Part shown: one piece after another, positions 1 to 34,859 of the stretch | Layout: every line of letters starts with the position of its first letter | Position numbering within the stretch: the stretch's first letter is position 1 | DNA from: an uncultured bacterium | GTDB taxonomy: Bacteria > Acidobacteriota > Thermoanaerobaculia > Multivoradales > JAHZIX01 | Reading direction: 5' to 3' | Assembly: GCA_965368975.1 (NCBI GenBank) | Contig: CBDUPA010000006.1 | Coordinates: 222,511-286,510, forward strand | DNA length: 64,000 bases | Notes under the pieces: model-generated | Database searches by the model: none | What the model was told of the DNA's origin: nothing | What the model saw: only the letters and a program-made list of their open reading frames with translations | Program-made: the position numbers and the translations under genes

Positions 1-2888
1 ACCCGTCGACGCCACTGGTAGACCATGCGCTGGTCGTCGTCGGGGCGCAGGCGCACGCTGCACACCAGGCCGAGCATCAGTGCCTGGATGAACAGGCGCC
101 AGGCGACCTGGAAGGTGGGCAGCTGCTGCGTGCTGTAGGGCAGGATGGGCTGGAATTGGTGGTAGTCCTGGTGGATGTGCAGCGGTGTGTCGCGCGCCAC
201 CAGGGAGTCGTAGTGCTTGCGCAGCTCGGAGACCTCGCTCAGGTAGTAGACCGGGAAGGCGTTGAGTTCGCTGTAGAAGATCAGCTCGCACGGCTCGTAG
301 GCCTGCACACGGCGCGGCTCGAAGGGGGCGTCGGCATACTGCTGCAGGAAGTCGACCAGCTCCTGGACCACTTCTTCCTCGTGCGGCTGGCCGGTGGTGG
401 TGCAGCCGATGAAGGCATCGCCGTGCGGTTGGTGCAGGTTGACCAACTCGTCGGCCTGGTTCTTGCTGCCCCAGGGCAGGCCCTTCTCGTATAGCTGCTC
501 GAACAGGTCGCGCCGCTTGGGACGATCGTAGTACTTGCCGAGCACGGCGCACAGTGAGTGCCGTTCGATGAAGCCGTCGACGGCGTCTTCCGGATCCTCG
601 ACGAAGGCGGCGGTGCGCCCCTTGTCGCCGCGCAGGGCGTAGAAGGCTTGCGCCGCCAGCTCGTCGCGGAAGTCTTCGAACTCGGCGTTCAACTTGTCGC
701 CGATACGTTGCAGCGTGTCGAGGCCCATGCGCCGCAGCGCGCGGTCGAGCACCAGCTGCAGGCGTTCGATCTTGGTCTCTCGCGCGCGTCCGAGGTAGGG
801 CTCGAGCAGGTCGCCCATCTCGCCCGGTACGTCGATCTCGACGATCACCGATGACTCTTGGGGCTGGGCGTAGAACTCGGCCAGCCGCTGGTACTCGGAC
901 TCGAGCAGGAACATGCGCTCGGCGATGCGTTCGAGGTTGCCGAGCTGGTCGCGCAGGACGTCGCGGATGCCGTCGACGGCGCGCTTGCCCTCGCCGCAGA
1001 TCAGTTCGTTGGCCTCGGCGCGCCAGTAGTCGTAGAAGGCTTCCGAGGCGCGCTGCACGGCGGCCTCGTGGGTGTCGACCGCGGAACCGAAGCCGCGCGA
1101 GGCGCGGTCGGCGTTCTTCAACCGCTTGTGCCAGTTCTGCAGCTCGATGTCGGCGCGTCCGCGCAACTTTTCCTGCTGCTGCTTGAAGTAGTCGCCGTAG
1201 AAGGCCTGGTCGGCGGGACGGTCGAGCAACTCGAGCAGGTCGCGCAGGATGGCCATGACACCTGAGATGCCGACCGCCGGACGGCGGCGGAAGTCCTCGA
1301 TCACCTTGGGCAGCGCCGTGTGCACCTCGTCGATCAGTTCCTTGCGATTCTGCCGGATGCGGCGCACCCAGTCGCCCTCACTGCCCGGGGAGTTGGGGTC
1401 GCCCCACAGGCTGGCGACGCGCTTGAAGACGTCCTCGCCCAGCTCGACGGTGGCCTTGTCGGTGTACATGTTCTCGGCCAGGCCGTTGATCTCTTCCTGG
1501 AAGCGGCGCAAGTGCTGGTAGACGTCGCTGACGTGGCCGCCGGCACCGCTCTGGCGCGCCAGACGGTCGCGGATCTGCCAGTGACGGCGACGACCGGCGT
1601 CGGTCTCGCGGTCGCCCTGGAAGAAGCCGGATTCGAAGCAGAAGCGGTCGCGGTGGTGGGTGATCACGTCCTTGAGACCGCCGACGCGGCCCGGGTCCAT
1701 CAGCCCCACCATCAGCCCCGCCAGGTCGTACTTGCAGCGGTTGAGCAGACGCCAGGACGGGAACACCAGCTTGCTCAGGCCGACGGTGGCAAAGGCGTTG
1801 CGCCACTCGTCGGTGTGCGTTTCCTGGGTGCTGCCGTCGGAGCGCTGCAGGCGGTAGGTGTAGGTGACGGCGCTGCGCAGGTATTGCTCGCGGTTGACGC
1901 GCACGCCCTGCACCCAGCCGGCCATCGGCCCGGCGCCAAAGTCGAGGAAGAGGATCTCCCCCAGCGTGCGGTAGCAGTCGTTGAGGTCGCCCAGGTACTG
2001 GCCGGAGGCGTTGGTGCCCGAAATCAGCACGTAGCGGTCGTACAGGCCGCGGACCTCCTGCGCCACCTCGTTGGGTTGCCAGCGGGCGAGGAAGGGGTGT
2101 GTCAGGTAGTGGTTCAGCTCCAGCAACGCGGCGCAGCCGTTGGCCGCCAGCTTGGGGTAGCTCTGCCCCTGTTCGACGTTCTTGAAGCCGCCGGGCAAGA
2201 CCAGGAAGCCTTCGATCTTGGGCTTGGACGTCGAGCCGAGGGTGCGCCGCACCAGTGCCGCGACGTCGAGCACCATGCCCGAGCCGGTACCGCCGGCCAG
2301 GCCCGCGACGATCACCACGCGCACCGGCGACGAGGTGTCGAGGCGGCCGGAGTCCAGGCGGTTGGAGGTCACCTTGCGGTGGGCGCGGTCGAGGCCACTG
2401 GCGATCAACTCGTGGTTGGTGAAGAAGGCGAGGCGCGACAGCGGCCGGATCTGGCCGGCGCCGGCTTCGATCTGGAAATCCTCGCTCGGCAGAGCGCGCT
2501 CGTCCCACCACTCACGGATCTGCGGATGGTGGATGAGGTTGGGGCCGACGTAGTTCTTGAACTCGATCTTGACGTCGACGCGTTCGTCTTTGTCGAAACT
2601 GAGCGCGCGGTCCAGCGGGCTGCGCCGCTCTTCTTCGGCCGAGACTTCTTTGGAACGCACGTCGGTGTCGATGGACAAGAAGGCGGTGCCGTCGAGCGCA
2701 TCGACCGCGCCGTAGCGCTCCAGCAGCATGCGCCGCAGGTGCAGCAGGGCCTTGGCACCGGTGCCGCCGAGGCCGACGAAGATGGTGCGCGGGTAGATGC
2801 CCTTGTCTCGCTTCCGGGCCTCTTCTTCGAGCTTGCGGGAGTAGTCGTCGTCAACGAATTCACCGACGACTTGATACGGATTGGCCAC
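1..2888 (-). CDS. Large tubulin/FtsZ-like GTPase (Tubulin_2 / FtsZl1-like) with a long, probably helical C-terminal region; 3' end lies outside the window
   Basis: Absent from the ORF track because it has no stop in the window. Manual translation from GTG at 2888 (AAGGAGG RBS upstream) gives ...RTIFVGLGGTGAKALLHL...FLSIDTD and the tubulin signature VIVAGLAGGTGSGM (~2275-2320). The same frame still reads as sense at the window start (DDQRMVYQWRR); the middle was not translated codon by codon. Confidence 0.88.
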   Translation of the reverse strand, partial: MANPYQVVGEFVDDDYSRKLEEEARKRDKGIYPRTIFVGLGGTGAKALLHLRRMLLERYGAVDALDGTAFLSIDTDVRSKEVSAEEERRSPLDRALSFDKDERVDVKIEFKNYVGPNLIHHPQIREWWDERALPSEDFQIEAGAGQIRPLSRLAFFTNHELIASGLDRAHRKVTSNRLDSGRLDTSSPVRVVIVAGLAGGTGSGMVLDVAALVRRTLGSTSKPKIEGFLVLPGGFKNVEQGQSYPKLAANGCAALLELNHYLTHPFLARWQPNEVAQEVRGLYDRYVLISGTNASGQYLGDLNDCYRTLGEILFLDFGAGPMAGWVQGVRVNREQYLRSAVTYTYRLQRSDGSTQETHTDEWRNAFATVGLSKLVFPSWRLLNRCKYDLAGLMVGLMDPGRVGGLKDVITHHRDRFCFESGFFQGDRETDAGRRRHWQIRDRLARQSGAGGHVSDVYQHLRRFQEEINGLAENMYTDKATVELGEDVFKRVASLWGDPNSPGSEGDWVRRIRQNRKELIDEVHTALPKVIEDFRRRPAVGISGVMAILRDLLELLDRPADQAFYGDYFKQQQEKLRGRADIELQNWHKRLKNADRASRGFGSAVDTHEAAVQRASEAFYDYWRAEANELICGEGKRAVDGIRDVLRDQLGNLERIAERMFLLESEYQRLAEFYAQPQESSVIVEIDVPGEMGDLLEPYLGRARETKIERLQLVLDRALRRMGLDTLQRIGDKLNAEFEDFRDELAAQAFYALRGDKGRTAAFVEDPEDAVDGFIERHSLCAVLGKYYDRPKRRDLFEQLYEKGLPWGSKNQADELVNLHQPHGDAFIGCTTTGQPHEEEVVQELVDFLQQYADAPFEPRRVQAYEPCELIFYSELNAFPVYYLSEVSELRKHYDSLVARDTPLHIHQDYHQFQPILPYSTQQLPTFQVAWRLFIQALMLGLVCSVRLRPDDDQRMVYQWRRR

Positions 2889-2916
2889 GGTGTGGACCTC
2901 CTTGTGCGTTCAGGCT

Positions 2917-3498
2917 TCAGCTATCCCGGACGATGGCCAGAGTGTAGATCAGATGGATCAGCCAGGCGCCGCCGAGTACCGCCAACCCTACCCAATACGA
3001 AGAATGCCAGCAGTCGGTCAACCAATGGGCCAGGCCGGCGGTGCCGAGGGCGGTGAGCACGACGGTCAGCGAGATGCCGAGGTGGCGACCGAGCATCGAG
3101 TTGCGGTCCTGGGCGATGAAGCGGCGCTCGAACACGCGCACCAGCAGGAAGAAGAGGAGCACGAGCAGGGTCAGGAAACCGACGCCGATCATCACCTTCT
3201 CCTGCGTCGACGGCGGGCAGCACTCGCCGGCCGGGCAGATGCTGCTGCCGATCAGCTCGGCCAGGGACTCTTCCTCACCGCTGCCGGGTGGGGTGATGTC
3301 TTCCGTGGTCACGTCTTCACTGGTCAAGTCTTCACTGGTGACCGTGGTCGGTGGTGGTGCCGGCTCCGGCCCGGTGGCGGGTTCCTGGGCCGAGAGGGGA
3401 CTGATCGTCAGCAAGAGGCTGATCGTCAGCAAGAGGCTGGTCATCAGCAAGAGGGGGAGCAGGCCGGAGACGTGGGTTCGCGAGTGCGCTGAGATCAT
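2917..3498 (-). CDS. Small membrane protein: signal peptide, Pro/Thr/Glu-rich linker, CPAGECC motif, about 3 TM helices
   Basis: 193-aa ORF with a hydrophobic N-terminus and three hydrophobic C-terminal segments; co-oriented inside the operon. Confidence 0.75.
   Translation of the reverse strand: MISAHSRTHVSGLLPLLLMTSLLLTISLLLTISPLSAQEPATGPEPAPPPTTVTSEDLTSEDVTTEDITPPGSGEEESLAELIGSSICPAGECCPPSTQEKVMIGVGFLTLLVLLFFLLVRVFERRFIAQDRNSMLGRHLGISLTVVLTALGTAGLAHWLTDCWHSSYWVGLAVLGGAWLIHLIYTLAIVRDS
3401..3454. repeat. 18-nt in-frame tandem repeat x3 (LL[T/M][I/T]S-type unit in the signal peptide)
   Basis: ctgatcgtcagcaagagg x2 plus ctggtcatcagcaagagg. Confidence 0.9.
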
Positions 3499-3521
3499 GG
3501 GCTAACCTTTCCTAACATGGA

Positions 3522-5597
3522 TTACCAATCGCTGTTGCCGCGACCGCTGATGCCGCGACCCTTCCAGCCGCGGCGCACGTCGAGCCGGTATTCGAAGCCG
3601 TCGCCATCGCCGTGACCGGTGGCCAGAATCCAGCTGCCGCCGTCCTTGCGCAGCCGGTGACCGGGACGGGCCTTGAACCGAGCGCGCGGCCCCCAGCCGC
3701 GGTGCAGACGGGCACGTACGGCGCCGTCGATGTCGAGGTCACGGCGGCTGAGGCGCGGCAAGCTGAGGCGTGCGTGCTCGACGCCGTCCACCCATACGGT
3801 GTACTGCAAGCGCTGGAAACGCAAGACGGCGAGCAGCACCAGTAGCAATAGACTACCGCCGCCGAGCAGCACCAGCAGCCCGAACAGCTGGCCGTTGTTG
3901 GACAGCACCGCGGCGGCCGGATACTCGGCCCACAGGTACCCTTGCTGGCGACCGCGGAAGAGAGCCGGCAGCTGGGCAGTGCCGTAGATGCCCTGCAGCC
4001 GCGCAGGGTCGATCGCCAGGCTGGTGCGGATGTCGCGCATCTCGGCCACCATGCGGCCGTCGAGCAGGATCTGCGGCGTCAGGGCGACGTCCAGCAGGTG
4101 CTGGCGCCCGCCACCCTTGAGACTACTTGCGACGTCGATCGGCGGCAGGCGGAACAGCACCTCGACCGTCGCGCTGCCCAGTGGCGGCAGCGGGCCGACC
4201 TCGATTGGTGCATCGGCACCGCCGCGCGTAGTCGGGCGGCCTTCGCCCTTGACCAGCCACTGCAGTGGCTCCATCTGCCCGGCGCACACGGCCGACGCCC
4301 AGGGCAGGCGCTGGCGCTCGAACGGCTTGCGCGGCAGCATCACCTGGTTGTGCAGGCTCAGGTGTGCGCTGTCGACGCTCTGGTGGCGCAGCGTGTTGCG
4401 CACCCGGATCTCGGCCAGGCACAGCAGCGCGTCGCCGTACTCGGCGCTACGGTCACAGTTGAGCGCCTGGCCGCCGTGCAGCTGGAAGTCGAGACTCAGC
4501 ACTTCGGTGTCGATCGGTTTGAGGCGTAGAGGCACACCGGCGACATCCGGCAAGGTCGCGCTCGGATCCGCGGTAGCGGCGTGCCCTGCGACCTCGGCGG
4601 CGACGTCGCGCAGCGCAGCGTTCCACAACAAGCCGTCGGCGGTTGGGCCGCTTCCTCCCGTGTTGGCTCCTGCGGGCTCGGTACCGCCGAGGCGGTGGGA
4701 GGCGGCGCTGTCCGGCCGCTCGAAGGCTGAGACATACATGCCGTAGACGAACAGTGACGTGCCGCACATCCAGCTGCAGGTCTGCGCTTCGAGCACCGGA
4801 TAGGTGGCGATCATCTGGATGCGCGGATCGACCTTGAGCGTGTTGTAGAAGGCGAGATTGCGCTGCGCGTCTTCGGCACTGACGCCCGCACCGCCGGTGT
4901 CGACGATGTTATCGGTCACCAGCCAGACGATCGCCTCGCCGATCTCGTCCGTGGCCACCGCGGTCACCGTCTCGATCAGCGCCTGCCGGCTCTCCGTGGT
5001 CAAGTAAGCGGTGCCGTCGACCTGCCTCGGGTGTCCCGGGATCTGCGCCAGCCAGTCGGCGATTTGCGCCGCCGAGGCGGTGGAGACGGGGCGCTCGAAG
5101 GTCAGCTGCTCGGCGCCGGTGAAGCGCTCTACGCTGCCGTCGCCGCCCAGGCGCCAGGCGTGGGCGTTGAACAGCAGGATCTCGAGTTGGATGTCCGTGC
5201 CGACCGGGCTGGCGGCGTCGAGCCAGCGGCCGAGCAGCTGGTGGAAACGTGGCAGCTGGTAGTAGAAGGTGCGCTCGGCACACACGGCGCAGCCGGCGTC
5301 CGGCTGGCGGTTGTAGCCGGGGTACATGCTGCCCGAGTAGTCGAGCATCAGGATCATCTTGGTGGGTGCTGGCGCGTCGCCCGCTGCCCGCCGCCGCCGC
5401 AGCACGCCGCCGGCGCTCGGATCCTCGACGGCACGGAAGCTCTGGCGGCGGATCGTACCGTCGGACAGCATGGCCTCGCTCTCGTCCGGGCACACGCGCA
5501 CACTGGCCTCTGTGACGTGTACCGCAGCCGTGCTGAGCACGACCCAGGCCAACGCGATCCCAAAGCCGCGGAAGCCGCGGATGGTCTCAGAATTCAT
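3522..5597 (-). CDS. vWA (MIDAS) domain membrane protein, paralog A
   Basis: Start re-assigned to ATG at 5597 (MNSETIRG; GGAGG upstream). N-terminal hydrophobic signal, MLDYSGSM MIDAS motif, WLVTDNI, and a C-terminal TM followed by a basic tail. Confidence 0.85.
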   Translation of the reverse strand: MNSETIRGFRGFGIALAWVVLSTAAVHVTEASVRVCPDESEAMLSDGTIRRQSFRAVEDPSAGGVLRRRRAAGDAPAPTKMILMLDYSGSMYPGYNRQPDAGCAVCAERTFYYQLPRFHQLLGRWLDAASPVGTDIQLEILLFNAHAWRLGGDGSVERFTGAEQLTFERPVSTASAAQIADWLAQIPGHPRQVDGTAYLTTESRQALIETVTAVATDEIGEAIVWLVTDNIVDTGGAGVSAEDAQRNLAFYNTLKVDPRIQMIATYPVLEAQTCSWMCGTSLFVYGMYVSAFERPDSAASHRLGGTEPAGANTGGSGPTADGLLWNAALRDVAAEVAGHAATADPSATLPDVAGVPLRLKPIDTEVLSLDFQLHGGQALNCDRSAEYGDALLCLAEIRVRNTLRHQSVDSAHLSLHNQVMLPRKPFERQRLPWASAVCAGQMEPLQWLVKGEGRPTTRGGADAPIEVGPLPPLGSATVEVLFRLPPIDVASSLKGGGRQHLLDVALTPQILLDGRMVAEMRDIRTSLAIDPARLQGIYGTAQLPALFRGRQQGYLWAEYPAAAVLSNNGQLFGLLVLLGGGSLLLLVLLAVLRFQRLQYTVWVDGVEHARLSLPRLSRRDLDIDGAVRARLHRGWGPRARFKARPGHRLRKDGGSWILATGHGDGDGFEYRLDVRRGWKGRGISGRGNSDW

Positions 5598-7587
5598 CGT
5601 GCCTCCGGTCCGCCTGCCGCCGCCGCAAGGGGAGTAGTTCCAGCTGGTAGGAGGTGCCGAGCCCGTCGCGCTCGGTGCTCTCCCAGGCGTGGCCCCCGAC
5701 GCTGCGCACCGTGAAGCCGGAAGCGCCGGTGACGCGCGGCCGGCCGCCGAGGCCCAGCTTGGCGCGGGCGATCGAGCGGCCGTCGGTCTGCAGGTCGCTC
5801 CAGCGCCAGCGTACCAGCCGCACGCGGCCGCGCTCACTGCCATCGATGTGCAGCTGGCGGTAGACCGGGCGCAGCCACCAGGTGATGGCGAGGAAGAGCA
5901 GCACGGCCAGCAGCAGGAGCAGCAGCAACAGCAGCGACGCCGTCTGCGTCGGGTTGTGGACGCCCATCTGCAGGCAGATGCTGGTCGCCAGCTCGTCCGT
6001 GCTCGGGTTGCGGAAGATCGCCGGCATCGCCTCGACGCCGTACACCGAGCCGAGCTGGGCGTCCTCGATCACCATGGCGGTTTCGAGGTCGTAGATGTCG
6101 ACGTGCATGGCGCCGAACATGGCGAAGTACTCGTGCTGCGCGTTCTCCCAATAGTCGGCCAGCGTGTGACGCTCGGTGGTCACCGGGCCGACGTCGAGGA
6201 CGATCGGCAGCGTGCGTCGTTCGCCCGGTGCCAGCGGTTCCTCCAGCAGCTTTTCGGCACGTACACTGCCGGCGCACAGGGGCACCGCGGTGTGCAGGCG
6301 CCGGACCTGCTGGCCGGGTAGCTGGCCGTAGGCGTCGGTGCGGCTGTTGTGCAGGACCAGGCGCAGCGACTCGACGGTGCGGTGGGGCAGCAGGTTCTCG
6401 ATCTCCAGGTCGGCCCGGCACTGGCGCGGCTGGCCGACGCGCGCCGGCGGGCAGCGCACCTCGCTGGCGAAGGCCAGGCGCACCACATCCATGTACGCGG
6501 GCTTGAGCTTGAACGGCTCGCCGGGTGATGGAGACTGTGGATCGGCGAAGGTCTCGAAGATCGCTTGGTGGGCCGATGTGCCGAGGCGGGCGCCCGGATT
6601 CTGCGGCCCGGTGAGCTGCTGGTAGGTGCGTTCGTCGAGCCGCTCGCGACTCGAGTAGTAGAGGCCGTAGACCATCAACGTCTGGTCGCATAGCCACGCG
6701 TCACCACCGGCCGGAGCCCGGTGCAGTGGCCAGGCGTAGACCACTTGCCAGCGTGGATCGGATTCGAGGATGCGGTAGAAGCGGCGGTTGAGTTCCGGCT
6801 CGCGGCCGTCGCCGGTCTCGATGATGTTGTCGGTCACCACCCAGGCGACGCCGTCGCGGGCCTCGTAGCTCTCGAACAGCACGCGCAGCGCTGGAAGTAC
6901 GTGGTCGAGACGCGTTTCGCGCGCGTCGCCGAAGCCGGCGCGGAACGGATCTGCGGGCAAGGTGCCGTGCAACTCGGGTGCGGTCAGCCGCTTCAGCGCC
7001 GCTGCGGCGCCGCGCGGTGCGATCGGCAGGCCACCGTCGAAGGCATTGGTGGCTGGATCGAAGCTGTGAGGCCCGGAGGCGTCGTCCAGCGCGGTACCAT
7101 CCAGCGCGATGACCTGGCGGTTGAACACCAACGTGTGGACCGGGTCGCGTTCGCCGACACCACTCAGCAGCCCGTCGCGCAGCAGGGAGGCAAAGCCTGG
7201 ATGGCTCCACAAGTACTGGCGCTGGCCCGAGTCTCCCGCGTCTGTGCAGCGGCGGAACATGCTGCCCGAGTAGTCCAGCACCAGCGCGTGCAGCAGTGGT
7301 CGTCCGTCGCTGTCCGTGGTCTCAGGTCCCAAAGGCAGGGGCGCACCGTCGAGCAGACCCCCGGCCGTGCGGTCGGCGGCGTCGCGTTCCGGGACCAGTA
7401 CGGCGGCCTGGTTGGCGCGGCATTCGCGCACCTTTTCGGCGCCGAAGACCGACTGCGGCGAGCAGGCGTCGCCAGCACCGCGCGGCTCGAACTGTCCGCA
7501 GCCGGTGACGCTGAGCCCGAGGCACAGGGTGCCCAGCCCCAGGAATCCCAGCCTCAGGAGGCCGACTAGTCGCCGGTGGGCAATCAC
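5587..7587 (-). CDS. vWA (MIDAS) domain membrane protein or lipoprotein, paralog B
   Basis: Start re-assigned to GTG at 7587, overlapping the upstream stop. Lipobox-like SVTGC, VLDYSGSM, WVVTDNI, C-terminal TM; collinear similarity to paralog A. Confidence 0.85.
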   Translation of the reverse strand: MIAHRRLVGLLRLGFLGLGTLCLGLSVTGCGQFEPRGAGDACSPQSVFGAEKVRECRANQAAVLVPERDAADRTAGGLLDGAPLPLGPETTDSDGRPLLHALVLDYSGSMFRRCTDAGDSGQRQYLWSHPGFASLLRDGLLSGVGERDPVHTLVFNRQVIALDGTALDDASGPHSFDPATNAFDGGLPIAPRGAAAALKRLTAPELHGTLPADPFRAGFGDARETRLDHVLPALRVLFESYEARDGVAWVVTDNIIETGDGREPELNRRFYRILESDPRWQVVYAWPLHRAPAGGDAWLCDQTLMVYGLYYSSRERLDERTYQQLTGPQNPGARLGTSAHQAIFETFADPQSPSPGEPFKLKPAYMDVVRLAFASEVRCPPARVGQPRQCRADLEIENLLPHRTVESLRLVLHNSRTDAYGQLPGQQVRRLHTAVPLCAGSVRAEKLLEEPLAPGERRTLPIVLDVGPVTTERHTLADYWENAQHEYFAMFGAMHVDIYDLETAMVIEDAQLGSVYGVEAMPAIFRNPSTDELATSICLQMGVHNPTQTASLLLLLLLLLAVLLFLAITWWLRPVYRQLHIDGSERGRVRLVRWRWSDLQTDGRSIARAKLGLGGRPRVTGASGFTVRSVGGHAWESTERDGLGTSYQLELLPLRRRQADRRHDEF

Positions 7588-9296
7588 GAGACCGTCTCCA
7601 GCTGCAAGCGGTAGCAGTGCACGCTCATCCCCTGGCCCAGGAAGACGTCGCGGCCGAGCAGGGCCAGGCCTTGGGGGGCTTCGTAGGCGCCGGGGACACG
7701 AATTCGTGACGGCGTGCCGAGATCGGCCCAGCCCAGGCCCTGGGCGCCCAGGCGCAGGCCATCCTGGAAGCGGGCCAGGACACCCGCCGAGCACACCAGC
7801 GGTGCTTCGCGCGCGCCCTGCAACCGTTGCTCCGGACCGCGCAACGGTTGGAGCACCGAGGCGGCGCTGCTGTAGCGCGGGAAGATCGCCACCATGCGGT
7901 CGGTCGACACCGCCAGCAGATGGCCACCGATGTTCTGCTGGTGGCGCGAGCCGTGGCCGATGGCGAAACCCATCAGGTCGCCGAGTTCGCCCAGGTCCCG
8001 CCGTTCCCAGCTCCACGGCTCGCCGCGCACGATGTCCGCCAGCGTCGCACGCAGCATCTCGACCCGACCGCCGGTCTCACTCGAGACCCACACTTCCGGC
8101 CGCTCGCGCGGGTCCGGCACCACCTGCAGGGTCGGCAGGCTCGAGGGCTCGAGGTCGAGCGGCGACTCGGGCGTGTAGCGGGTCGGCACCAGCTCGCGCG
8201 GCTCACTGTTTGGCTGCAGCAGTCCGTCTGGCTGCAGCAGTCCGTCTGGCTGCAGCAGTCCGTCTAGCTGCAGCAGTGACGTCAGTACCTCGCGCTCCAG
8301 CATCGACACGGTACCGCGACCGTCGACCCACAGTAGCCGACCGGTGGCGGCGTCGAAGGTGGGCGGGCGCATGACGCCGGGCGCCGGGCAGCGTGCCAGC
8401 AGGGTGCCGGCGGGGTTGAATAGCAGAATCTCTCCGTCCGCGAAGGCCTGTCGTTCCAGGTCCGGGCGGCCCTGCAGCAGTGCGAACAGCACGCCGTCCG
8501 CGCTTCCAGCTGGCTGCAGATCCAGCCCCAGCGGGGGTCCCAGAAACTGGCAGCCGGTATCCGGCGGGTGCGCGCGGGTAGGATGTTCGCTCGCCATGCC
8601 GCGGAAGTAGAGGTAGGGCGCGAGGTCGCGGAATACCGCCTGGTGCGCGGCGGCGACCAGCATGCGCGAGCCGCGAAGGACCGGCGGGTGCAGCACGGCG
8701 TGGGCGGGGTCGGTAGGGTCAGTGGAGCGGTCCGGCCACTCCAGGGGGCGCTGTAGCCGTGGCGTGCCGTCCTGGGCGTCGAAGATGCCGAGCCAGCCGC
8801 GCGCGGTGGTGGCGACCACCTGGCCGCGCACCACGTTGACGCCCACCACGTGATCCTCGGAGGTTCCGACGTCGTCGCCGGCTGCCAGCAGGCTGCGCTG
8901 CCAGCCCTCGCGCAGCACGAAGCGTTGATCGGCGCGCGGCGGGCCAAAGATGTTGCCCAGCGGATCGCGCGGGCTGTGCGCACGCCCGGCACTGCCGCCG
9001 GCCTCGTTCCAATCGAGCAATGAATCGCCGCGCAGGGCGCTGCCGGTGCGAGTCGAGAAGGCACTCCAGGGACGTCGATAGACCTCGGCGGCCGCGGTGC
9101 TCTCCGGCGCTGGCTGGTCGTTCTGCTGCTGAACGGCCTCGTAAGGCCGCGCACAGGCGTCGCACCAACCCAGGGCCGGCAGGAAATGCAGCGGCTGCAC
9201 GGGTTGTGCGCAGTCCGGGTAAGGGCAGCGCTCCGGCGGTCGGAAGCGCCGGTTGTCGGGGTCCCACTCGGGGCCGCTGAGGTGTGGACTCTTCAT
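7584..9296 (-). CDS. Zn-ribbon plus beta-propeller-like hypothetical protein
   Basis: Start at ATG 9296 (MKSPHL; ATGA overlap with the upstream stop). CPYPDC...CDAC cysteine pairs, then beta-rich repeats such as GWLGIFDAQDG and LLWVDGRGTV. Confidence 0.7.
   Translation of the reverse strand: MKSPHLSGPEWDPDNRRFRPPERCPYPDCAQPVQPLHFLPALGWCDACARPYEAVQQQNDQPAPESTAAAEVYRRPWSAFSTRTGSALRGDSLLDWNEAGGSAGRAHSPRDPLGNIFGPPRADQRFVLREGWQRSLLAAGDDVGTSEDHVVGVNVVRGQVVATTARGWLGIFDAQDGTPRLQRPLEWPDRSTDPTDPAHAVLHPPVLRGSRMLVAAAHQAVFRDLAPYLYFRGMASEHPTRAHPPDTGCQFLGPPLGLDLQPAGSADGVLFALLQGRPDLERQAFADGEILLFNPAGTLLARCPAPGVMRPPTFDAATGRLLWVDGRGTVSMLEREVLTSLLQLDGLLQPDGLLQPDGLLQPNSEPRELVPTRYTPESPLDLEPSSLPTLQVVPDPRERPEVWVSSETGGRVEMLRATLADIVRGEPWSWERRDLGELGDLMGFAIGHGSRHQQNIGGHLLAVSTDRMVAIFPRYSSAASVLQPLRGPEQRLQGAREAPLVCSAGVLARFQDGLRLGAQGLGWADLGTPSRIRVPGAYEAPQGLALLGRDVFLGQGMSVHCYRLQLETVS
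8212..8277. repeat. 18-nt in-frame tandem repeat x3.7 (LLQPDG)
   Basis: ggctgcagcagtccgtct x3 plus a partial copy. Confidence 0.9.
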
Positions 9297-10087
9297 CGGC
9301 CGACGATCACCTGCGCGCGTTGGGGTTCTTGGTCGGCACGGGCATAGCGACGTCCGACCACCTTGAGGGCGACGACCAGACCGGCCGCTCCGCCGATATC
9401 CCGGCCGCCGAGGGCGTGGTGGCGGTCGGGGTCGAAACGGGTCTCGAACGGCACGACCGGATCCAAGCGGTACCAGCCCTGGCGCTGGCACAGCTGGCCG
9501 AAGTCGTCGTAGAGCCATCCTCGCAGCCGCTTCACCAGGTCGTCGCCGTGGCCCTCGTGGGCTTGCTGCGCCGCGACGGAAAGGTGGCGCGCCAGCTGGT
9601 TGAGCAGTTCCGGCAGGTCACTGTCCGCCCACGCCGCGAGTCGATCAGCTTCGATCGCCTCCACCAGGCGCTGCAGGCGCGTCAGCATCGGCGCGCCAAA
9701 GTCCTGGTGGAGGCGACGTCGCGCTTCGTCGTCGGCGCACAGTGTTGCCAGCTCGGGTGCTTGCTGGTGTAGTCGCAGCAGCAGCAGGCCGATCTCGCCC
9801 TGCGGTAGGCGTTCCAGATCGTGACGAATGGCCTCGTAGTCGACGCCGCTCTGCGTCTCGGCCGCGGGTTCGGTGGGTTTGGTGCCAGGGTGGCTGCCGG
9901 GATGGTTGTCGGTGGACTGGTTGCCGTTGCCGTCGAGAGAAGCGCTGGTCCTGTCGTCGCGCAGGGCTTGCAGGAGCTGGCGGTCTTCCTCCTGCCGGCG
10001 TTCCAGCCGCCGCAGCCTCCAGCCGAGGAGGCCATAGAGGGCGAGCGCCAGGACGGCGAGCAGGGCGGCGAGCAGGGAGGGCATCAT
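9293..10087 (-). CDS. Membrane-anchored GrpE-like nucleotide exchange factor
   Basis: Start at ATG 10087 (ATGA overlap). N-terminal TM, coiled region, and C-terminal FDPDRHHAL...VVGRRY...RAQVIV resembling the GrpE head (FDP.HEA...GY...R.A.V.V). Confidence 0.72.
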   Translation of the reverse strand: MMPSLLAALLAVLALALYGLLGWRLRRLERRQEEDRQLLQALRDDRTSASLDGNGNQSTDNHPGSHPGTKPTEPAAETQSGVDYEAIRHDLERLPQGEIGLLLLRLHQQAPELATLCADDEARRRLHQDFGAPMLTRLQRLVEAIEADRLAAWADSDLPELLNQLARHLSVAAQQAHEGHGDDLVKRLRGWLYDDFGQLCQRQGWYRLDPVVPFETRFDPDRHHALGGRDIGGAAGLVVALKVVGRRYARADQEPQRAQVIVGR

Positions 10088-13000
10088 GACAGCGGCACTC
10101 CTTTGGATTCCTTGCCATCGGCGACGATCCACAGATCGGCCGGGCCGCGCACCTGGATCACCAGGTCGCTGGCTGGCTCGAACTGGAAGCGCACGTAGGG
10201 TTGATGGTCGCGGTACAGCTCCAGGCGGTCGATCTTCGCTGGCTCTTGCAGGTGCACCTCCGCTGGTAGCTCGGTGTTGCGCTCCAGTCCGGGGACGGTG
10301 CGGAAGCGACGGCGGCCGGCCTTGCGTTGCAGGTCGAAGTTGAGGCGCTGGTGCAGCGTGTTGCGCAGGTGCAGCCAGCGGCCTTCTTCGCGGCTCAGCT
10401 GCCACAGCGCTGCCCCGATGGCGACGCAGTGTTTGGGGTCGAAGGGGACGTCCAGGCTGGCCTTGCCCGAGCTGGCTCTATCCGAAGTCGGGGGTTCGAC
10501 CAGGATCAACGGCGTGTCCGCTGGTCGACGCTGGGCGACGGCTTCTTTGACGCCCTGGCGGATCACCGGCACGCGCACGCCCTGGCCGGTGAACAGCAGG
10601 GTGGTGACCTCGGACCACTGCCAGCCGGCGCGCTCGACGACGCTGTCGAGCAGTGGCAGGACCGCTGCCAGTCGTGTGCTGACCAGGTCCTCGAACGTGG
10701 CGCGGTCGATGGTGGTGGTAAAGTCCGGCTCGGCTGCTGGGCTGGCGTTGCTGGAGATACTGGTGTTGCTGGAGATACTGGTGTTGCTCGAAACATTGGC
10801 CAGGAGAGACGGGCCGAGCTCCAGCGTCAAGCTCGCTTGCTGTGCCTCGGAGAGCCGCTTCTTGGCCACCTCGGCGGCTCGCAGCAAGCCGCTGGCACCG
10901 CTGTAAAGGTCGATCGCCAGATCTTCCAGCTGTTCGTCGCGCCAGCCGGACCACGGTTCCTGGTAGCGCGCGCGCTGCCGGAAGCCGCTCTGGAACTCGC
11001 TGAACAGTCGAGCTTGCAGAGCGTAACGAATCTCGTCGAGCAGCTGTAGAAGCTCGGCCGGGTGGCTCCCGTCGTTCTCACCGCGCACCTGTGCCAGCAG
11101 CCACTCGGCGAGCAGCACGTCGAGGTCGTCGCCGCCCAACCGCCGGCCAGCATTGCTCTTCAACTCGACGGTCACCGGCACGTCCTCGCCGACATCGTTC
11201 GGATCGGTGCCGGCGTAGCGGTCGAGGTCGTGCACTTCGACCGCCGCCAGGTCCGTGGTGCCGCCGCCCATGTCGAAGCACAGCACGCGTTCGATCGGCA
11301 GGAACGGCTCCCCGGCCGCCACCTGGCGCCGCTCACGGGCGTCGACGTAGGCCAGCACCGCGGCGCTGGCTTCGTCGACGCAGCGCTCGGCGAAGAAGGC
11401 GTCGACCTGCACCTGATCGAGGTTGACGCCGACGCTGTGCGCCGTTTCCATGAGCGCCCGGCGCATCGGCTCTGTGACCTCCACCGGGTGGCTGAACACG
11501 GCCTTCTGGAACACCACCCGCTCCCCCTGCAGGCGCAGGTCGCGCTGGGCGTCGGGGTCGAGGAGGGTGACGCCGCGCTCGGCGCGGCCGAGCAGTTCGC
11601 CGATGAAGATATCGAGCAGCTGCTGAGCGCTGTAGCGGGCGCGCTGAAAGCCGTCACCGTGCCGGTAAAGGAAATTGTAGGCGGTCGCCGGATCGCGCGC
11701 GATCACCGTCTTGATGCTGCGCACCAGATTGGCGGGGTCGATACCGGCGGAGTGGTGCGCTTGTTGACCGAAGAGGAAGCGGTTCTGCGCGCCGTCGTGA
11801 GGACTCTCGGCATCCGCCAGAAAGTACATCAGCGACGCCAGCGACGGCCGCCGCTGCTCCAGTTCCAAGAGCAGGGGATAGGCGCGCTCGTCGCCCAGAA
11901 TGCACACCACTGAGCTGGAGGTGCCGAAGTCGATGCCGGCGGCGAAGTGATCGGCGACACGGCCGAACTCGACGCTGATGTCCAGCGCCAGCCCGGTTTC
12001 CAGGCTCCGCCCGGTGTCGTTCTCGGCTGTAGGCGTCCACCCATCGTGCTCCAAAATCAGCCGCCGCTGTCCCCATTCTTCGCCAGCCAAGTGTCGCGGC
12101 CGGAGTTCGGGGTGGACCCGTAGTTCGAGCGTTCGTTCTTCACCGGCCTCCAGCAGGTCGCCCAGTTCGACGCCGCGGATGCTCAGCCAATCGGGCGACC
12201 AGTCCGGATCGGGCACCGGCCGCCAGTCGCCGTCGTGCGGCTGCAGCACATGCAGATCTCCCAAGCGCAGCGGTACCTGGCCGGCATTGCGCACCGTGAG
12301 GGTGTGCTCCTCACGCAGTCGCGAGAACGGAATGGTCAGCTCGGGCGGACCGTGGGTCACCAGCCGAGGTGCGCGCACGACACTGCCGCGCAGCCGGCAG
12401 TCGAGGAGCAGCTCTTCGCCCTGATGACGGCAGCGCAGCTCGATACGGCCATCGAACCAGATGGGTTCGTCCGAGCCGGTACTGGCCGAGCCGATGCTGG
12501 ACGAGCCGATGCTGGCCGAGCCGGTACCGCCCGCCTCGAGGTTGCGCAGCAGCTCCACGTCTTCCTCGCCGCGCAGGTCGATGTGCAGGGTCAACTCGTC
12601 GTTCGCGTCCACCGGCAGGGGCAGGTCCAGAGGTTGCGCATGTAGCAGGCGGGTCGCGTCGAGACGCTGGTGGCCGGCGGGTGTCTCTTCACCCGCGTCG
12701 CGTACCCGGATCTCTAGCAATTCGAGCGCGTCGGCGGATTCGTTGCGCAGCACCAGCGTCTGCCGCACGCCCTGCGCGCGCACCAGCTCGACGGGCAGGA
12801 AGCGGTAGAGCGCACCCCCCGGCAGCAGGCGCGGCTGGCGCACGAGCAGCAGGTCGAGCTCGAGGTTCTGCTGAAAGCTGTCGTGCAGCGTGATCGTGGC
12901 GACCAGTTCCTGACCCGCCTCGGCGTCACGGTCGTAGGCTTGTTGCAGGCGGAAACTGTCGATCGGCAGGTCGAGTCGCTGGGGTTCCCCTCCGGGTGCC

Positions 13001-13320
13001 AGCTGCAGCACGCGCTCGGTCAGTTCGTCGCGCAGGACCCAGGCTGGCAGGGTGCGGATGGTGTCGTCGGTCAGGACCAGCGCGGCGGCGGTGACGCCCT
13101 CGTTGATCAGCTGGACTTGCACGTGGCGGGCGTTGCGCTGCACCGCCACGCGTCCGCTGGTCTCTTGCCAGCTGCCCAAGCGCTGGTTGCCGCCCGCGTC
13201 GGTGCCGGCGGCGCGCCAGCGAACGCGCGTCAACGGCCGACCGCACACCGCGCAGTAGGCGTCGGCCGGGCTGACCGCGTTGGCGCAGCGCGGACAGGTC
13301 GGGCGGTCCGGCGTCGTCAC
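10084..13320 (-). CDS. Atypical Hsp70/DnaK-family ATPase fused to an N-terminal zinc ribbon and Ig-like domains
   Basis: CPRC...CAVC at the N-terminus; Hsp70 motifs GIDFGTSSS, VDEASAAVLAY, FDMGGGTTD, LGGDDLD, AAEVAKKRLS, DPKHCVAIGAA. The C-terminus is too short for a canonical substrate-binding domain and lid. Confidence 0.88.
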   Translation of the reverse strand: MTTPDRPTCPRCANAVSPADAYCAVCGRPLTRVRWRAAGTDAGGNQRLGSWQETSGRVAVQRNARHVQVQLINEGVTAAALVLTDDTIRTLPAWVLRDELTERVLQLAPGGEPQRLDLPIDSFRLQQAYDRDAEAGQELVATITLHDSFQQNLELDLLLVRQPRLLPGGALYRFLPVELVRAQGVRQTLVLRNESADALELLEIRVRDAGEETPAGHQRLDATRLLHAQPLDLPLPVDANDELTLHIDLRGEEDVELLRNLEAGGTGSASIGSSSIGSASTGSDEPIWFDGRIELRCRHQGEELLLDCRLRGSVVRAPRLVTHGPPELTIPFSRLREEHTLTVRNAGQVPLRLGDLHVLQPHDGDWRPVPDPDWSPDWLSIRGVELGDLLEAGEERTLELRVHPELRPRHLAGEEWGQRRLILEHDGWTPTAENDTGRSLETGLALDISVEFGRVADHFAAGIDFGTSSSVVCILGDERAYPLLLELEQRRPSLASLMYFLADAESPHDGAQNRFLFGQQAHHSAGIDPANLVRSIKTVIARDPATAYNFLYRHGDGFQRARYSAQQLLDIFIGELLGRAERGVTLLDPDAQRDLRLQGERVVFQKAVFSHPVEVTEPMRRALMETAHSVGVNLDQVQVDAFFAERCVDEASAAVLAYVDARERRQVAAGEPFLPIERVLCFDMGGGTTDLAAVEVHDLDRYAGTDPNDVGEDVPVTVELKSNAGRRLGGDDLDVLLAEWLLAQVRGENDGSHPAELLQLLDEIRYALQARLFSEFQSGFRQRARYQEPWSGWRDEQLEDLAIDLYSGASGLLRAAEVAKKRLSEAQQASLTLELGPSLLANVSSNTSISSNTSISSNASPAAEPDFTTTIDRATFEDLVSTRLAAVLPLLDSVVERAGWQWSEVTTLLFTGQGVRVPVIRQGVKEAVAQRRPADTPLILVEPPTSDRASSGKASLDVPFDPKHCVAIGAALWQLSREEGRWLHLRNTLHQRLNFDLQRKAGRRRFRTVPGLERNTELPAEVHLQEPAKIDRLELYRDHQPYVRFQFEPASDLVIQVRGPADLWIVADGKESKGVPLS
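10747..10788. repeat. 18-nt in-frame tandem repeat (SSNTSI)
   Basis: gttgctggagatactggt x2 plus a partial copy. Confidence 0.85.
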
Positions 13321-14831
13321 GCGCCTCTCTCCGAGGGGGACTGTGGTTTCGTTCGAGCTTGTGCGTCTGGCGGAGCTTCCCCGTGCAGTGGAGCTTCCCC
13401 GTGCAGCGGAGCTTCAATATCGACGCGCACCAAGTCGCCGTGACGCAGGGCGGGCGAGAGCACGCGATAGCGTCGGCCGTGCGCATCGAGTGGACGCAGC
13501 TGGCCTCCCACCGCGACGCCGTTGACCACCAGCTGCAGGCGCTCCGGCGGCACGCCCTCGTCGAGCACCAGGATGTCCGGCCGGAAGTCGTCGAGCGGCG
13601 TAAACGGAGGAGCTTCGGGCAGATCCTGCAGAGGAGGAGTGCTCGTCGCGGGCTCGTCGTGGCTGGCGGACTGGGGTGAGGGCTGGGGCGCCGGCGTCGG
13701 GGGTACCTGCGTCGGGGGTACCTGCCTCGGAGTCAGGGCTTGTGGCGGGGGCGGTGGTAGTGGTGCGGACGTAGGGGCTGCGTTCTGGGGCGTCGGGTCG
13801 GCGTGCACCGCCGTGGCCAGGTGACGCTTCAAGCTGTTGACGATTTCGCGCTGCGGCCGTTCCTGCAGCCAGTCGCCGTAGCGCTGCGTCAGGTCCGTGT
13901 GCAGTTCCAGGTGCTCGGGGTCCAGCTGCCGGGCGGACAAGCCCTGGCCGTCGAGAAAGCGTCGCAAGTCGTCGAGGGCGTCGGAAGGCCGGCCACCCTC
14001 GCGCAGCAACACCGTCGGCCCCTCACTCCAGCGTACTTCCTGCACCGGCACACCCTGCGAGTCGACGAGTAGCTGCGGCTTGGCGAGACGTTGCCACCAG
14101 GACGGCGGGTCGATCTCGGGCAGCAGGCGCACGCGCACGCGCGTCGCTCGGAGGCGGTGCAGCGACGGATCACTCGAAAGGAAGACATCACAGCCGTGCA
14201 GCTGCAAGTCCGTCGTACCCGTCGCCTGTGCCGCCAGTCCGTAGGCGATGCGCTGTTGCCACGCCCAGGTTTCCGCTCGTGGCGGCTCGACGTTTGCAGG
14301 CAGCTCGTCGAGCCAGGCCTGGAGGATCGCTGGTGTCACGCTCCAAGCGCGCGCCAGCGCGGTGGACGCCGGCACCACCAGCGACCGGAAGGGCTCGATG
14401 ATGCGCAACCAGCCTCCCGCTTCGACGACGATGCGCGTATCGACCGCATCGTGAGACGCGTCGACCACCGCCTGGCGCAGGATTGGCTCGGCCGGCACCA
14501 CCGTCCAGCCCGCTTCGTCCCAGGCTCCGAGCAGCTGCCGTCCGCGCGCCGCATCACGCCAGGCTTCGGGGACCAGCAACAGGTCCGGTCCGCCGCGCCG
14601 CGCCGTCGCCAGGCGCGCGAACTCCGCGCTCATCTGCCGCCAGGCCGCTGCCTCGGTGCTGGACGCCGGCTCGCTGTCCACACTTGACTCGACCGTGATT
14701 TCGACCCCCATCGCCGGGTCCGGCAGGCCGCAGGCGAGGTCCGCATCCAGGGCGGCGAAGAGGTCAAGGTGCGACGGCTCGACGGTGCCCGCGAGGGACC
14801 CGCAGCCGAGCACCAATGGTCTAGGTTTCAC
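13317..14831 (-). CDS. Degenerate Hsp70/actin-fold-like protein with a Pro-rich linker and a small C-terminal beta domain
   Basis: LLLVPEAWRDAARGRQLLGAWDEAGWTVVPAEP resembles Hsp70 VITVPAYFNDAQRQ...AG...EP, and IVVEAGG resembles VYDLGGG. Its stop overlaps the Hsp70 start. Confidence 0.55.
   Translation of the reverse strand: MKPRPLVLGCGSLAGTVEPSHLDLFAALDADLACGLPDPAMGVEITVESSVDSEPASSTEAAAWRQMSAEFARLATARRGGPDLLLVPEAWRDAARGRQLLGAWDEAGWTVVPAEPILRQAVVDASHDAVDTRIVVEAGGWLRIIEPFRSLVVPASTALARAWSVTPAILQAWLDELPANVEPPRAETWAWQQRIAYGLAAQATGTTDLQLHGCDVFLSSDPSLHRLRATRVRVRLLPEIDPPSWWQRLAKPQLLVDSQGVPVQEVRWSEGPTVLLREGGRPSDALDDLRRFLDGQGLSARQLDPEHLELHTDLTQRYGDWLQERPQREIVNSLKRHLATAVHADPTPQNAAPTSAPLPPPPPQALTPRQVPPTQVPPTPAPQPSPQSASHDEPATSTPPLQDLPEAPPFTPLDDFRPDILVLDEGVPPERLQLVVNGVAVGGQLRPLDAHGRRYRVLSPALRHGDLVRVDIEAPLHGEAPLHGEAPPDAQARTKPQSPSERGA
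13372..13415. repeat. 18-nt in-frame tandem repeat (EAPLHG)
   Basis: ggagcttccccgtgcagY x2 plus a partial copy. Confidence 0.85.
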
Positions 14832-23809: not shown

Positions 23810-23903
23810 GACGGACCTCCTTGCCTCATTAGACACGACTGGAGCATCCGAGGAAACCGCCCCGTTCCGTCATGAGCCTATTGCTTGGTCGAGAACAGCC
23901 TTG

Positions 23904-34771: not shown

Positions 34772-34859
34772 TCCGCGAATGGTATGCTGCGCGAAGCCGA
34801 AATTCTTTCAGTTGTGTTAACGCCCCTTGCTCAGGTCTTGGCGATGTCAGAAGGATTCC

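Follow-up and report, generated by a model that had tools for sequence, protein, structure and literature searches.

Tubulin-like GTPases of the Tubulin_2 family, which the available part of PMC9871819 equates with the 'FtsZ-like' group of Makarova and Koonin, were placed by the latter authors (2010, PMC2875224) in FtsZl1/vWA (von Willebrand factor A) operons with many unnamed membrane partners, and a role in membrane remodelling, not in division, is proposed for these operons in the portion of that paper at hand. Kaur et al. (2020, eLife 9:e52696, PMC7159879) predicted GTPase-centred conflict systems in which tubulin and vWA proteins, or an HSP70-GrpE pair, are always arranged around a DO-GTPase; as far as the accessible text goes, the tubulin and the HSP70-GrpE themes are non-overlapping and occur mostly in Firmicutes and Actinobacteria, and the systems are enriched in social or multicellular bacteria. 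The only mutant data on Tubulin_2 clusters that we found in the literature are from Synechocystis: according to the part of PMC9880817 at hand, mutants in sll0445 (Tubulin_2), sll0446 (an FtsA/actin-fold ATPase) and sll0447 lose phototaxis, Sll0445 and Sll0446 co-fractionate with each other, the proteins of all three genes co-fractionate with pilus assembly proteins, and a CRP site is predicted for the sll0443-sll0449 unit, for which LexA control is also stated. Here we describe a gene cluster of an uncultured bacterium (Bacteria; Acidobacteriota; Thermoanaerobaculia; Multivoradales; JAHZIX01; assembly GCA_965368975.1) in which a Tubulin_2 gene stands together with vWA-like genes, an Hsp70-type gene and a putative GrpE-like gene. 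The stretch analysed, called the window, comprises 64,000 nt of the forward strand of contig CBDUPA010000006.1, positions 222,511-286,510 (G000:C6:222511-286510, where G000 is the source genome, assembled to 7.13 Mb in 59 contigs with a completeness of 99.3%).

The cluster combines genes for the Tubulin_2 protein (g8) and a small membrane protein (g7) with genes for an Hsp70-type ATPase (g2), the putative GrpE-like protein (g3), a Zn-ribbon protein (g4), two vWA-like membrane proteins (g5 and g6) and a family-specific protein (g1). These eight co-oriented minus-strand open reading frames fill positions 1 to 14831 of the window and, once the gene starts have been refined from start-codon positions and orthologue alignments, the first six overlap one another (GTGA at g1/g2, ATGA at g2/g3 and g3/g4, GTGA at g4/g5 and 11 nt at g5/g6), whereas spacings of 23 and 28 nt separate g6 from g7 and g7 from g8, respectively. 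Such a layout of eight co-oriented genes, the first six overlapping, had been given in a preliminary description of the window and is correct as far as the window goes, but the cluster is ten genes long, because it continues for about 3.7 kb past the left window edge. In the sequence retrieved from there g8 ends 882 bases left of the window and is followed by two further co-oriented genes, g9 and g10. A gap of about 200 bases lies past g10, and the DUF4350/GldG-like genes beyond g10 were rejected as members of the system, as they are matched beside it in none of the 80 Tubulin_2 loci (18 of them close relatives of g8) which a scan of one genome per species yielded.

Gene order and strand of the window recur in four other genomes (L005, L008, L013 and L018), which belong to Acidobacteriota, Myxococcota and one Pseudomonadota metagenome-assembled genome (MAG), with g1 not detected in L013; the same order is kept up to the contig end in L004 and L006. 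At L007 and L009-L012, which have adequate flanks, the locus holds only g7 and g8, with g9 and g10 next in L009-L011. Ten whole genomes, these five and five others whose g8 locus is truncated or lacks context, were searched with the g2-family profile, and each yielded one g2 orthologue (10/10, E<=1e-20), full or contig-limited, on a contig other than that of the tubulin gene; where unlinked g2 orthologues have flanks they are accompanied by g1, g4 and a vWA-like gene. The g2 family and a g8 orthologue are thereby found together in 15/15 genomes. Being fused here, split elsewhere and yet co-occurring throughout, g1-g6 and g7-g10 therefore constitute two modules, A and B, which probably work together. 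Close relatives of g8 are spread over different phyla. Among 401 genomes of the source organism's own phylum a single one, G000, has a g2 match at E<=1e-10, and G000 alone has a full-length match to g8; the two counts were obtained in different search modes, on genomes that are related to one another, and do not amount to a formal test.

The association extends to more distant Tubulin_2 clades. An Hsp70 homologue lies within the fetched flanks of 23 of the 80 loci. Four Pyrinomonadaceae loci (L077, L071, L067 and L053; clade 2 hereafter) have in common the order Zn-ribbon protein, Ig-like plus Hsp70 protein of 1070 aa (Pfam E 2e-44), GrpE (2e-8), DZR-propeller protein, g5/g6 homologue, g7 homologue and Tubulin_2 protein of 1101 aa. 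G090, a genome from the phylum of G000, encodes two Hsp70s, of which the second is degenerate and has Ig-like and DZR domains, together with a GrpE-like protein, a propeller, a vWA-like protein and a Tubulin_2 protein of 1304 aa, and in Latescibacterota loci (L075) Tubulin_2 is followed by a 1033-aa Hsp70 and then by a GrpE-like coiled-coil protein. The theme of Tubulin_2, a large Hsp70 and a GrpE-like protein is thus seen in three distant clades with differing gene orders. The preliminary description had asked whether Hsp70/GrpE genes lie near tubulin/vWA genes elsewhere, and the four genomes of the same order, the ten unlinked genomes with a g2-family gene and these three clades answer this in the affirmative. 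Desulfonema magnum (G416, NZ_CP061800.1) has a 948-aa frame matched by the g2 profile (E 6.9e-13) about 22 kb from Tubulin_2, a pair that may represent this theme with looser linkage.

The identity of g8 is clear from its sequence profile. Residues 36-391 of its 1256 aa span positions 1-352 of the 356 in the Pfam Tubulin_2 model (PF13809; E 2.7e-58, 198 bits against a cut-off of 27), a match that was reproduced on the genome, and the GGTGSG signature is present (AGLAGGTGSGM). G199, G200, T201, G202 and G204 as well as G41, G42 and G44 are invariant in 34 orthologues; N293, D304 and E311 are conserved and are candidates only for the catalytic acidic residue of the T7 loop. The earlier call of a tubulin-like GTPase with an intact signature is hence confirmed, and it is by sequence profile that a tubulin fold is predicted for the protein at 1..2888; searched against PDB sequences the g8 profile found no solved relative, the best being TubZ at E 0.23. 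The roughly 800 aa that follow the GTPase domain match nothing in any library searched, while the C-terminus aligns with a stretch, flanked by PPPL motifs, which stored Pfam matches call GYF_2 (PF14237) in many orthologues. Sixty protein clusters, of which many carry PF14237, align over at least 90% of the length of g8 with identities of 31-60%, and the clusters with a named source come from Acidobacteriota, Thermoanaerobaculia, Myxococcota, Deltaproteobacteria and Pseudomonadota MAGs. The source genome also holds a second Tubulin_2 gene on another contig (L189/L195; open frame of 1336 aa, Pfam E 8.9e-42), with no partner gene detected within about 10 kb.

The g2 protein consists of a CxxC..CxxC N-terminus, a beta-rich, Ig-like region of about 440 aa, an Hsp70 nucleotide-binding domain and a C-terminal domain of 94 aa. 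It matches Pfam HSP70 at E 1.6e-13 and, under the cut-off, Zn_Ribbon_1 at E 0.012, and its clade-2 counterpart has a Pfam Ig-like domain (E 6e-8). The five ATPase motifs (phosphate-1, phosphate-2, connect and adenosine), GIDFGTSNS, DEATAA, DMGGGTTD, LLFTGQ..R.P and DPK.CVA.GAA, are invariant or nearly so in 33 family sequences, in agreement with the first description of g2 as a Zn-ribbon/Hsp70 ATPase. A canonical substrate-binding domain was not found: the best stretch of the Pfam HSP70 match stops at model position 352 of 599, the NCBIfam DnaK score is 58 bits against a cut-off of 648, and all DnaK/HscA scores are far under cut-off. The g2 family is small, with 37 full-length relatives among 5.8 billion clusters, and a metagenome scan with the g2 alignment returned mostly generic Hsp70 genes and one relevant locus in 80 (L084). 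The operon contains no J-domain protein. In a Myxococcales MAG (L012) g7-g8 is followed by genes for a response-regulator/DnaJ/TPR protein and for a Ser/Thr kinase with a PEGA domain.

The gene g3, wherever present, directly follows the Hsp70 gene and specifies a protein with a transmembrane (TM) segment at residues 4-22, a disordered linker, a helical region and a C-terminal beta domain of 60 residues. The evidence that this last domain is GrpE-like is transitive and comes through relatives: one of seven g3 orthologues matches Pfam GrpE (E 3.2e-6), a member of the clade-2 counterpart family does so at 2e-8, above the cut-off, and hhalign aligns the g3 family with this GrpE-positive family over 63 columns (Prob 80.5, E 1.3e-5). 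The window's own g3 has no Pfam match, GrpE included, and searches against PDB sequences recovered no GrpE with the g3 profile and coiled coils only with the clade-2 GrpE-like profile. Of the label given to g3 beforehand, a TM-GrpE-like protein, the membrane segment therefore stands on its own, and the GrpE part is putative, by way of the relatives.

Topology, read from hydropathy, places the vWA-like domains of g5 and g6 outside the cell membrane, each connected through a single TM segment with roughly 100 aa of cytoplasmic tail; g8, g2 and g4 have no hydrophobic segments. In g5 a lipoprotein-type signal (…VTGC) precedes an outer vWA-like domain with the sequence DYSGSM, and g6, whose start is identical to that of the stored gene call P0164 (100% identity and coverage), has a signal/anchor followed by a vWA-like domain. 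In both proteins a beta-rich region and the TM segment come next, and the cytoplasmic tail comprises about 98 aa in g5 and about 99 aa in g6. The two are paralogues, 26-27% identical. Their DxSGS motif (D86, S88, G89, S90, M91) is invariant in a 13-row g5/g6 alignment and nearly so in 52 sequences, the family shares a conserved W.VTDN strand, and g6 aligns with its clade-2 counterpart by hhalign (Prob 96.9, E 1.7e-10). None of 63 family members has a Pfam match, and the family profile found neither a match among PDB sequences nor, by hhalign, one to a bona fide VWA protein; the atlas neighbours of P0159, which is 56% identical to g6, are all VWA-named and, with scores of 0.85-0.87 under the bar of 0.9, provide a lead only. 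The two vWA membrane proteins of the preliminary description are accordingly membrane proteins by topology and vWA-like by their DxSGS motif, the hidden Markov model and PDB-sequence searches having come back empty.

The third kind of membrane protein in the window, g7, had been listed as a small TM protein, and by hydropathy it indeed has three TM helices; a signal-like segment is also present, and the outer stretch, acidic and rich in Pro, contains a Cys motif. In each of the 15 other group I loci that have upstream sequence it immediately precedes g8, and it aligns with clade-2 p6 (hhalign Prob 96.2, E 2.5e-9). g9 and g10 each have a signal-like N-terminus and a C-terminal TM anchor, and g10 matches Transglut_core weakly (E 6e-4, 20.5 bits against a cut-off of 23). 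Peptidase genes lie beside Tubulin_2 in three distant clades, M23 in L077 and trypsin-like in L188 and L075; in the window's clade g9 and g10 occupy that place.

In all four single-pass proteins, g5, g6, g9 and g10, the cytoplasmic tail closes with a conserved acidic-aromatic sequence (…DEF in g5, …SDW in g6, …RKF and …REF in g9/g10). A C-terminal W or F after acidic or polar residues is found in 13/13 sequences of the g5/g6 family, in 6/6 of g9 and in 7/7 of g10, and five of seven clade-2 vWA-like proteins have D(D/T)FLD at the end. This common tail motif suggests a single docking site on a cytoplasmic component and, being shared by proteins of both modules, would tie module A to module B.

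Module A further comprises g1 and g4. The g1 protein, made up of an N-terminal domain of about 330 aa, a proline-rich linker and a small C-terminal beta-rich domain, had been taken for a degenerate Hsp70. We find no support for this: hhalign detects no similarity to the g2 Hsp70 family (P 0.11 and 0.15), none of 27 family members scanned, the window's g1 included, matches an Hsp70 or actin-fold Pfam family, and the g1 profile has no match among PDB sequences. g1 is without match in Pfam, NCBIfam and PADLOC, its family has 44 representatives among 1.84 billion proteins, and its atlas model is too poor for use (predicted local distance difference test 0.31); a g1 orthologue stands upstream of g2 in L005, L008, L018, L174, L175 and L177. 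We also rejected the idea that the small C-terminal domains of g1 and g2 and the g5/g6 tails are one adaptor domain (hhalign P 0.011-0.089 over only 9-20 columns). For g4, described earlier as a Zn-ribbon-propeller protein, the Zn-ribbon is indicated by the motif CPYP.C..C..C, in which Cys 24, 45 and 48 are invariant, and its profile gave only a weak match to ribosomal Zn-ribbons among PDB sequences. The beta-propeller is probable by way of a relative, as g4 itself matches PQQ_2 weakly (E 0.017) and aligns by hhalign (E 4.6e-4) with L077 p4, which has Pfam PQQ_2 (5.7e-8) together with DZR.

Table 1. Genes of the cluster and other features mentioned in the text; coordinates refer to the window unless a locus, genome or contig is given.
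Feature	Coordinates	Strand	Product or remark
g1	13317..14831	-	504 aa; first gene, family-specific protein
g2	10084..13320	-	1078 aa; Zn-ribbon, Ig-like region, Hsp70 nucleotide-binding domain
g3	9293..10087	-	264 aa; TM anchor, putative GrpE-like C-terminal beta domain
g4	7584..9296	-	570 aa; Zn-ribbon, probable beta-propeller, cytoplasmic
g5	5587..7587	-	666 aa; lipoprotein-type signal, vWA-like, one TM, cytoplasmic tail
g6	3522..5597	-	691 aa; signal/anchor, vWA-like, TM, cytoplasmic tail
g7	2917..3498	-	193 aa; small membrane protein, three TM helices
g8	1..2888	-	Tubulin_2 GTPase; 962 of 1256 aa in window
g9	L002:15951-16988 (outside window)	co-oriented	about 345 aa
g10	L002:14755-15951 (outside window)	co-oriented	about 398 aa, weakly transglutaminase-like
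Cytoplasmic tail of g6	3525-3830		
Cytoplasmic tail of g5	5590-5895		
Tandem-repeat arrays	3298-3339, 3401-3454, 8211-8277, 10742-10788, 12471-12527, 13370-13415, 13694-13730		
Alpha-2-macroglobulin gene	17534-23836		bacterial type, 2100 aa
CHAT-domain gene	34827-38045		1072 aa
Secreted repeat protein	L002:12807-13676		289 aa, downstream
Second Tubulin_2 gene	G000:C12:124014-125060		L189/L195
DO-GTPase2 (PF19993) genes	G000:C46:6579-7148, G000:C4:32599-33204		L192, L193
Desulfonema magnum frame	G416, C1:1969376-1970587		g2-profile match
DnaJ/TPR and kinase genes	L012:14084-17947		Myxococcales MAG
M23 peptidase gene	L077:15863-16963		
Trypsin-like peptidase genes	L188:15948-16775, L075:8833-9885		

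The operon stretch has a G+C content of 65-72%, and scans of the operon for promoters and terminators gave no more than shuffled sequence yields. As to sequencing runs, no RNA run is listed, and two soil DNA runs contain only 0.09 of the words. In-frame tandem repeats of 15/18 nt lie within g7, g4, g2 and g1; at a score of at least 60 the operon's 15 kb contain seven arrays and the remaining 49 kb of the window three, and in the g2 alignment the repeats are insertions unique to the source genome. The neighbours of the operon are ordinary chromosomal genes (glycosyltransferases, alpha-2-macroglobulin, QueG), the alpha-2-macroglobulin gene being 2.7 kb and a CHAT-domain gene 20 kb away. Downstream lies a gene for a secreted protein composed mostly of Cys-Gly-Ser-Ala repeats (…CGGSAC…) and without a Pfam match.

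What would such a set of proteins do together? We favour, at a probability of roughly 45%, the view that they build a trans-envelope machine in which a g7-anchored Tubulin_2 polymer is remodelled by a private Hsp70/GrpE pair. Within module B the three TM helices of g7 would probably anchor or nucleate the g8 polymer, and in some genomes g9 and g10 would contribute periplasmic proteins with C-terminal TM anchors. Module A would supply the Hsp70-type ATPase g2, g3 as a membrane-tethered GrpE-like exchange factor, the Zn-ribbon propeller g4, g1, and one or two single-pass vWA-like proteins (g5, g6) with a domain bearing a metal ion-dependent adhesion site (MIDAS) outside and the tail inside. The outer domains would bind a ligand or an envelope partner, the tails of g5, g6, g9 and g10 would dock via their common C-terminus onto a cytoplasmic component, and the ATP cycle of the Hsp70/GrpE pair would assemble, remodel or dismantle either the g8 polymer or the links between polymer and tails. 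The polymer would in turn place or cluster envelope proteins and enzymes, and the likely purpose of the whole would be to organise or remodel the envelope or cell surface rather than to divide the cell. A trans-envelope machine had also been put forward in the preliminary description; the topology, with outer vWA-like domains, one TM segment and cytoplasmic tails, fits it, and the interpretation overall is partly supported.

A number of observations weigh against this view. Among the nine close loci whose flanks are long enough, five lack an Hsp70 module next to the tubulin gene. At about 36 Ignavibacteria-type loci (Ignavibacteria/Bacteroidota) no Hsp70 lies near Tubulin_2, and none of four such genomes has a g2-family match, so that the coupling is to be regarded as real but clade-specific. 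In five genomes of the split type g3 was found in two and not in three, and the exchange factor is therefore dispensable; similarly, g10 was found in one of five genomes searched and not in the other four, and the periplasmic enzymes are therefore accessory. The assignment of g5 and g6 as vWA-like proteins with a MIDAS comes from the motif and from sub-threshold atlas neighbours. The patchy spread across phyla fits a conflict system equally well. Finally, we infer from sequence both the interactions of the operon proteins and their polymerisation, ATPase and GTPase activities, and with them all binding steps and the cellular role.

The alternative that the cluster is such a conflict system, directed against phage or other invaders in the manner of Kaur et al. 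(2020), we consider somewhat unlikely. Here sensors, either the outer vWA-like domains or domains in the cytoplasm, would detect the invader and the Hsp70 and tubulin NTPases would multimerise, the multimers serving as a threshold switch or a physical barrier and leading to containment or to cell suicide in social or multicellular bacteria. Sets of tubulin with vWA and of HSP70 with GrpE do belong to predicted conflict systems in the part of PMC7159879 at hand, and the occurrence of g2 and full-length g8 in the same single genome of 401, the close relatives in different phyla, the duplication and divergence of the vWA-like gene, the enrichment of in-frame repeats in the operon and the CHAT-domain gene at a distance of 20 kb can all be counted in its favour. 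The DO-GTPase that defines the published systems, however, is absent from the operon: the two PF19993 matches of the genome are on contigs C46 and C4 and not on C6, neither of these two proteins has a tblastn match in the window or the fetched loci, and a Walker A motif is missing from all ten operon proteins. The cluster therefore cannot be equated with the GTPase-centred conflict systems published for tubulin or Hsp70. Moreover, PADLOC matched none of the ten proteins, the operon has no recognisable toxic effector (nuclease, pore-former or NADase), no integrase or phage gene was seen adjoining it, and its neighbours are ordinary chromosomal genes both here and in L012 (pyruvate kinase, poly(A) polymerase). 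With its PF19993 (DO-GTPase2) genes on C46 and C4, the source genome may carry a separate Kaur-type GTPase-centred system as well.

Outer vWA-like domains are typical adhesion modules, and the host phyla include gliding Myxococcota, both of which would suit an apparatus for surface motility, pili or adhesion in which a tubulin-like polymer and an actin-fold ATPase position the surface machinery. The loss of phototaxis in the sll0445-sll0447 mutants of Synechocystis and the co-fractionation with pilus assembly proteins (PMC9880817, in part), together with the predicted CRP site and the reported LexA control of sll0443-sll0449, point in this direction. Nevertheless we regard this explanation as improbable, as the likeness to Synechocystis is one of description, the cyanobacterial Tubulin_2 proteins matching only 18-24% of g8, the DUF4350/GldG-like genes are conserved beside the operon in none of the loci surveyed, and the operon contains no pilus or gliding gene. 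That general chaperones, Hsp70 and a GrpE-like protein, merely happen to lie beside a Tubulin_2/vWA operon might be argued from the five close loci at which the Hsp70 module is missing, but is very improbable in view of the small size of the g2 family and its lack of a substrate-binding domain, its presence in every one of the 15 genomes with a g8 orthologue and the lack of a match to it in the other 400 genomes of the phylum sample, the start-to-stop overlap of the first six genes, and the recurrence of the Tubulin_2/Hsp70/GrpE triad in different orders in distant clades.

Whichever role applies, the locus is a real, conserved new variant within two little-understood groups of systems, Tubulin_2/vWA and tubulin/Hsp70, and is defined enough for direct testing. 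It offers a compact conserved set of partners, namely the three-TM protein, a private Hsp70 with its putative GrpE-like factor, the Zn-ribbon protein with its probable propeller and the vWA-like proteins with their tail motif, and with this set a vague link between FtsZ-like and vWA genes becomes a system that can be reconstituted. Should the Hsp70 cycle indeed control a tubulin-like polymer, this would be a new mode of cytoskeleton regulation in prokaryotes; should the cluster serve in defence, it would form a branch of the predicted tubulin/Hsp70 conflict systems that does without a DO-GTPase.

How, then, does the cluster relate to the systems described so far? With the FtsZl1-vWA operons, as far as they are laid out in the available part of PMC2875224, it shares a divergent GTPase with long extensions, several other membrane proteins and, if the motif-based label of g5 and g6 is right, vWA-type membrane proteins (DxSxS); the kinases, P-loop GTPases and OmpA-like proteins of those operons are not present here. 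The portion of its main text at hand makes no mention of Hsp70, DnaK or GrpE, and its unnamed families A1-A2 and B1-B9 (Additional Files) may include some of the proteins of this operon. Our literature searches found no description of this gene combination, which agrees with the earlier statement that no coupling of such a GTPase to an Hsp70-GrpE pair is known; the statement has to be qualified inasmuch as the accessible text of PMC7159879 had predicted both themes, separately. The DO-GTPase/GAP1-N2 systems treated there combine tubulin with vWA, or HSP70 with GrpE and in some cases one more protein that is HSP70 only; the cluster resembles them through its vWA-like and putative GrpE-like proteins, and the systems likewise have Zn-ribbons and TM components near the membrane. 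They differ in that the two themes stand together here, and do so in Acidobacteriota, Myxococcota and other phyla. In the part of the paper at hand they are also defined by three components, a DO-GTPase, GAP1 and a protein with FNIII repeats; this operon has no DO-GTPase, and its ten proteins match no Pfam family named after GAP1 or FNIII.

The Synechocystis sll0443-sll0449 unit, known to us through part of its literature, is similar in that Tubulin_2 stands beside an ATPase of the actin/Hsp70 superfamily, and it also has a coiled-coil protein; the differences are the limited coverage of g8 by the cyanobacterial proteins and, with the partners compared by description only, that no vWA-like or propeller partner is reported there. 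Compared with DnaK-GrpE, the cluster has an Hsp70 domain with all ATPase motifs and, in the next gene, a C-terminus resembling the GrpE beta domain, but g2 has an N-terminal Zn-ribbon and an Ig-like region and no substrate-binding domain, and g3 is membrane-anchored and not found in some genomes. It is rather doubtful that the cluster represents a new class of trans-envelope cytoskeletal machine, in which an anchored polymer of the tubulin superfamily would be driven by a private Hsp70/GrpE pair and wired through tails to vWA-like receptors and envelope enzymes. If this were true, such a class would parallel in function both the outside-in coupling of integrin-type receptors to the cytoskeleton and the disassembly of lattices driven by Hsc70 in eukaryotes.

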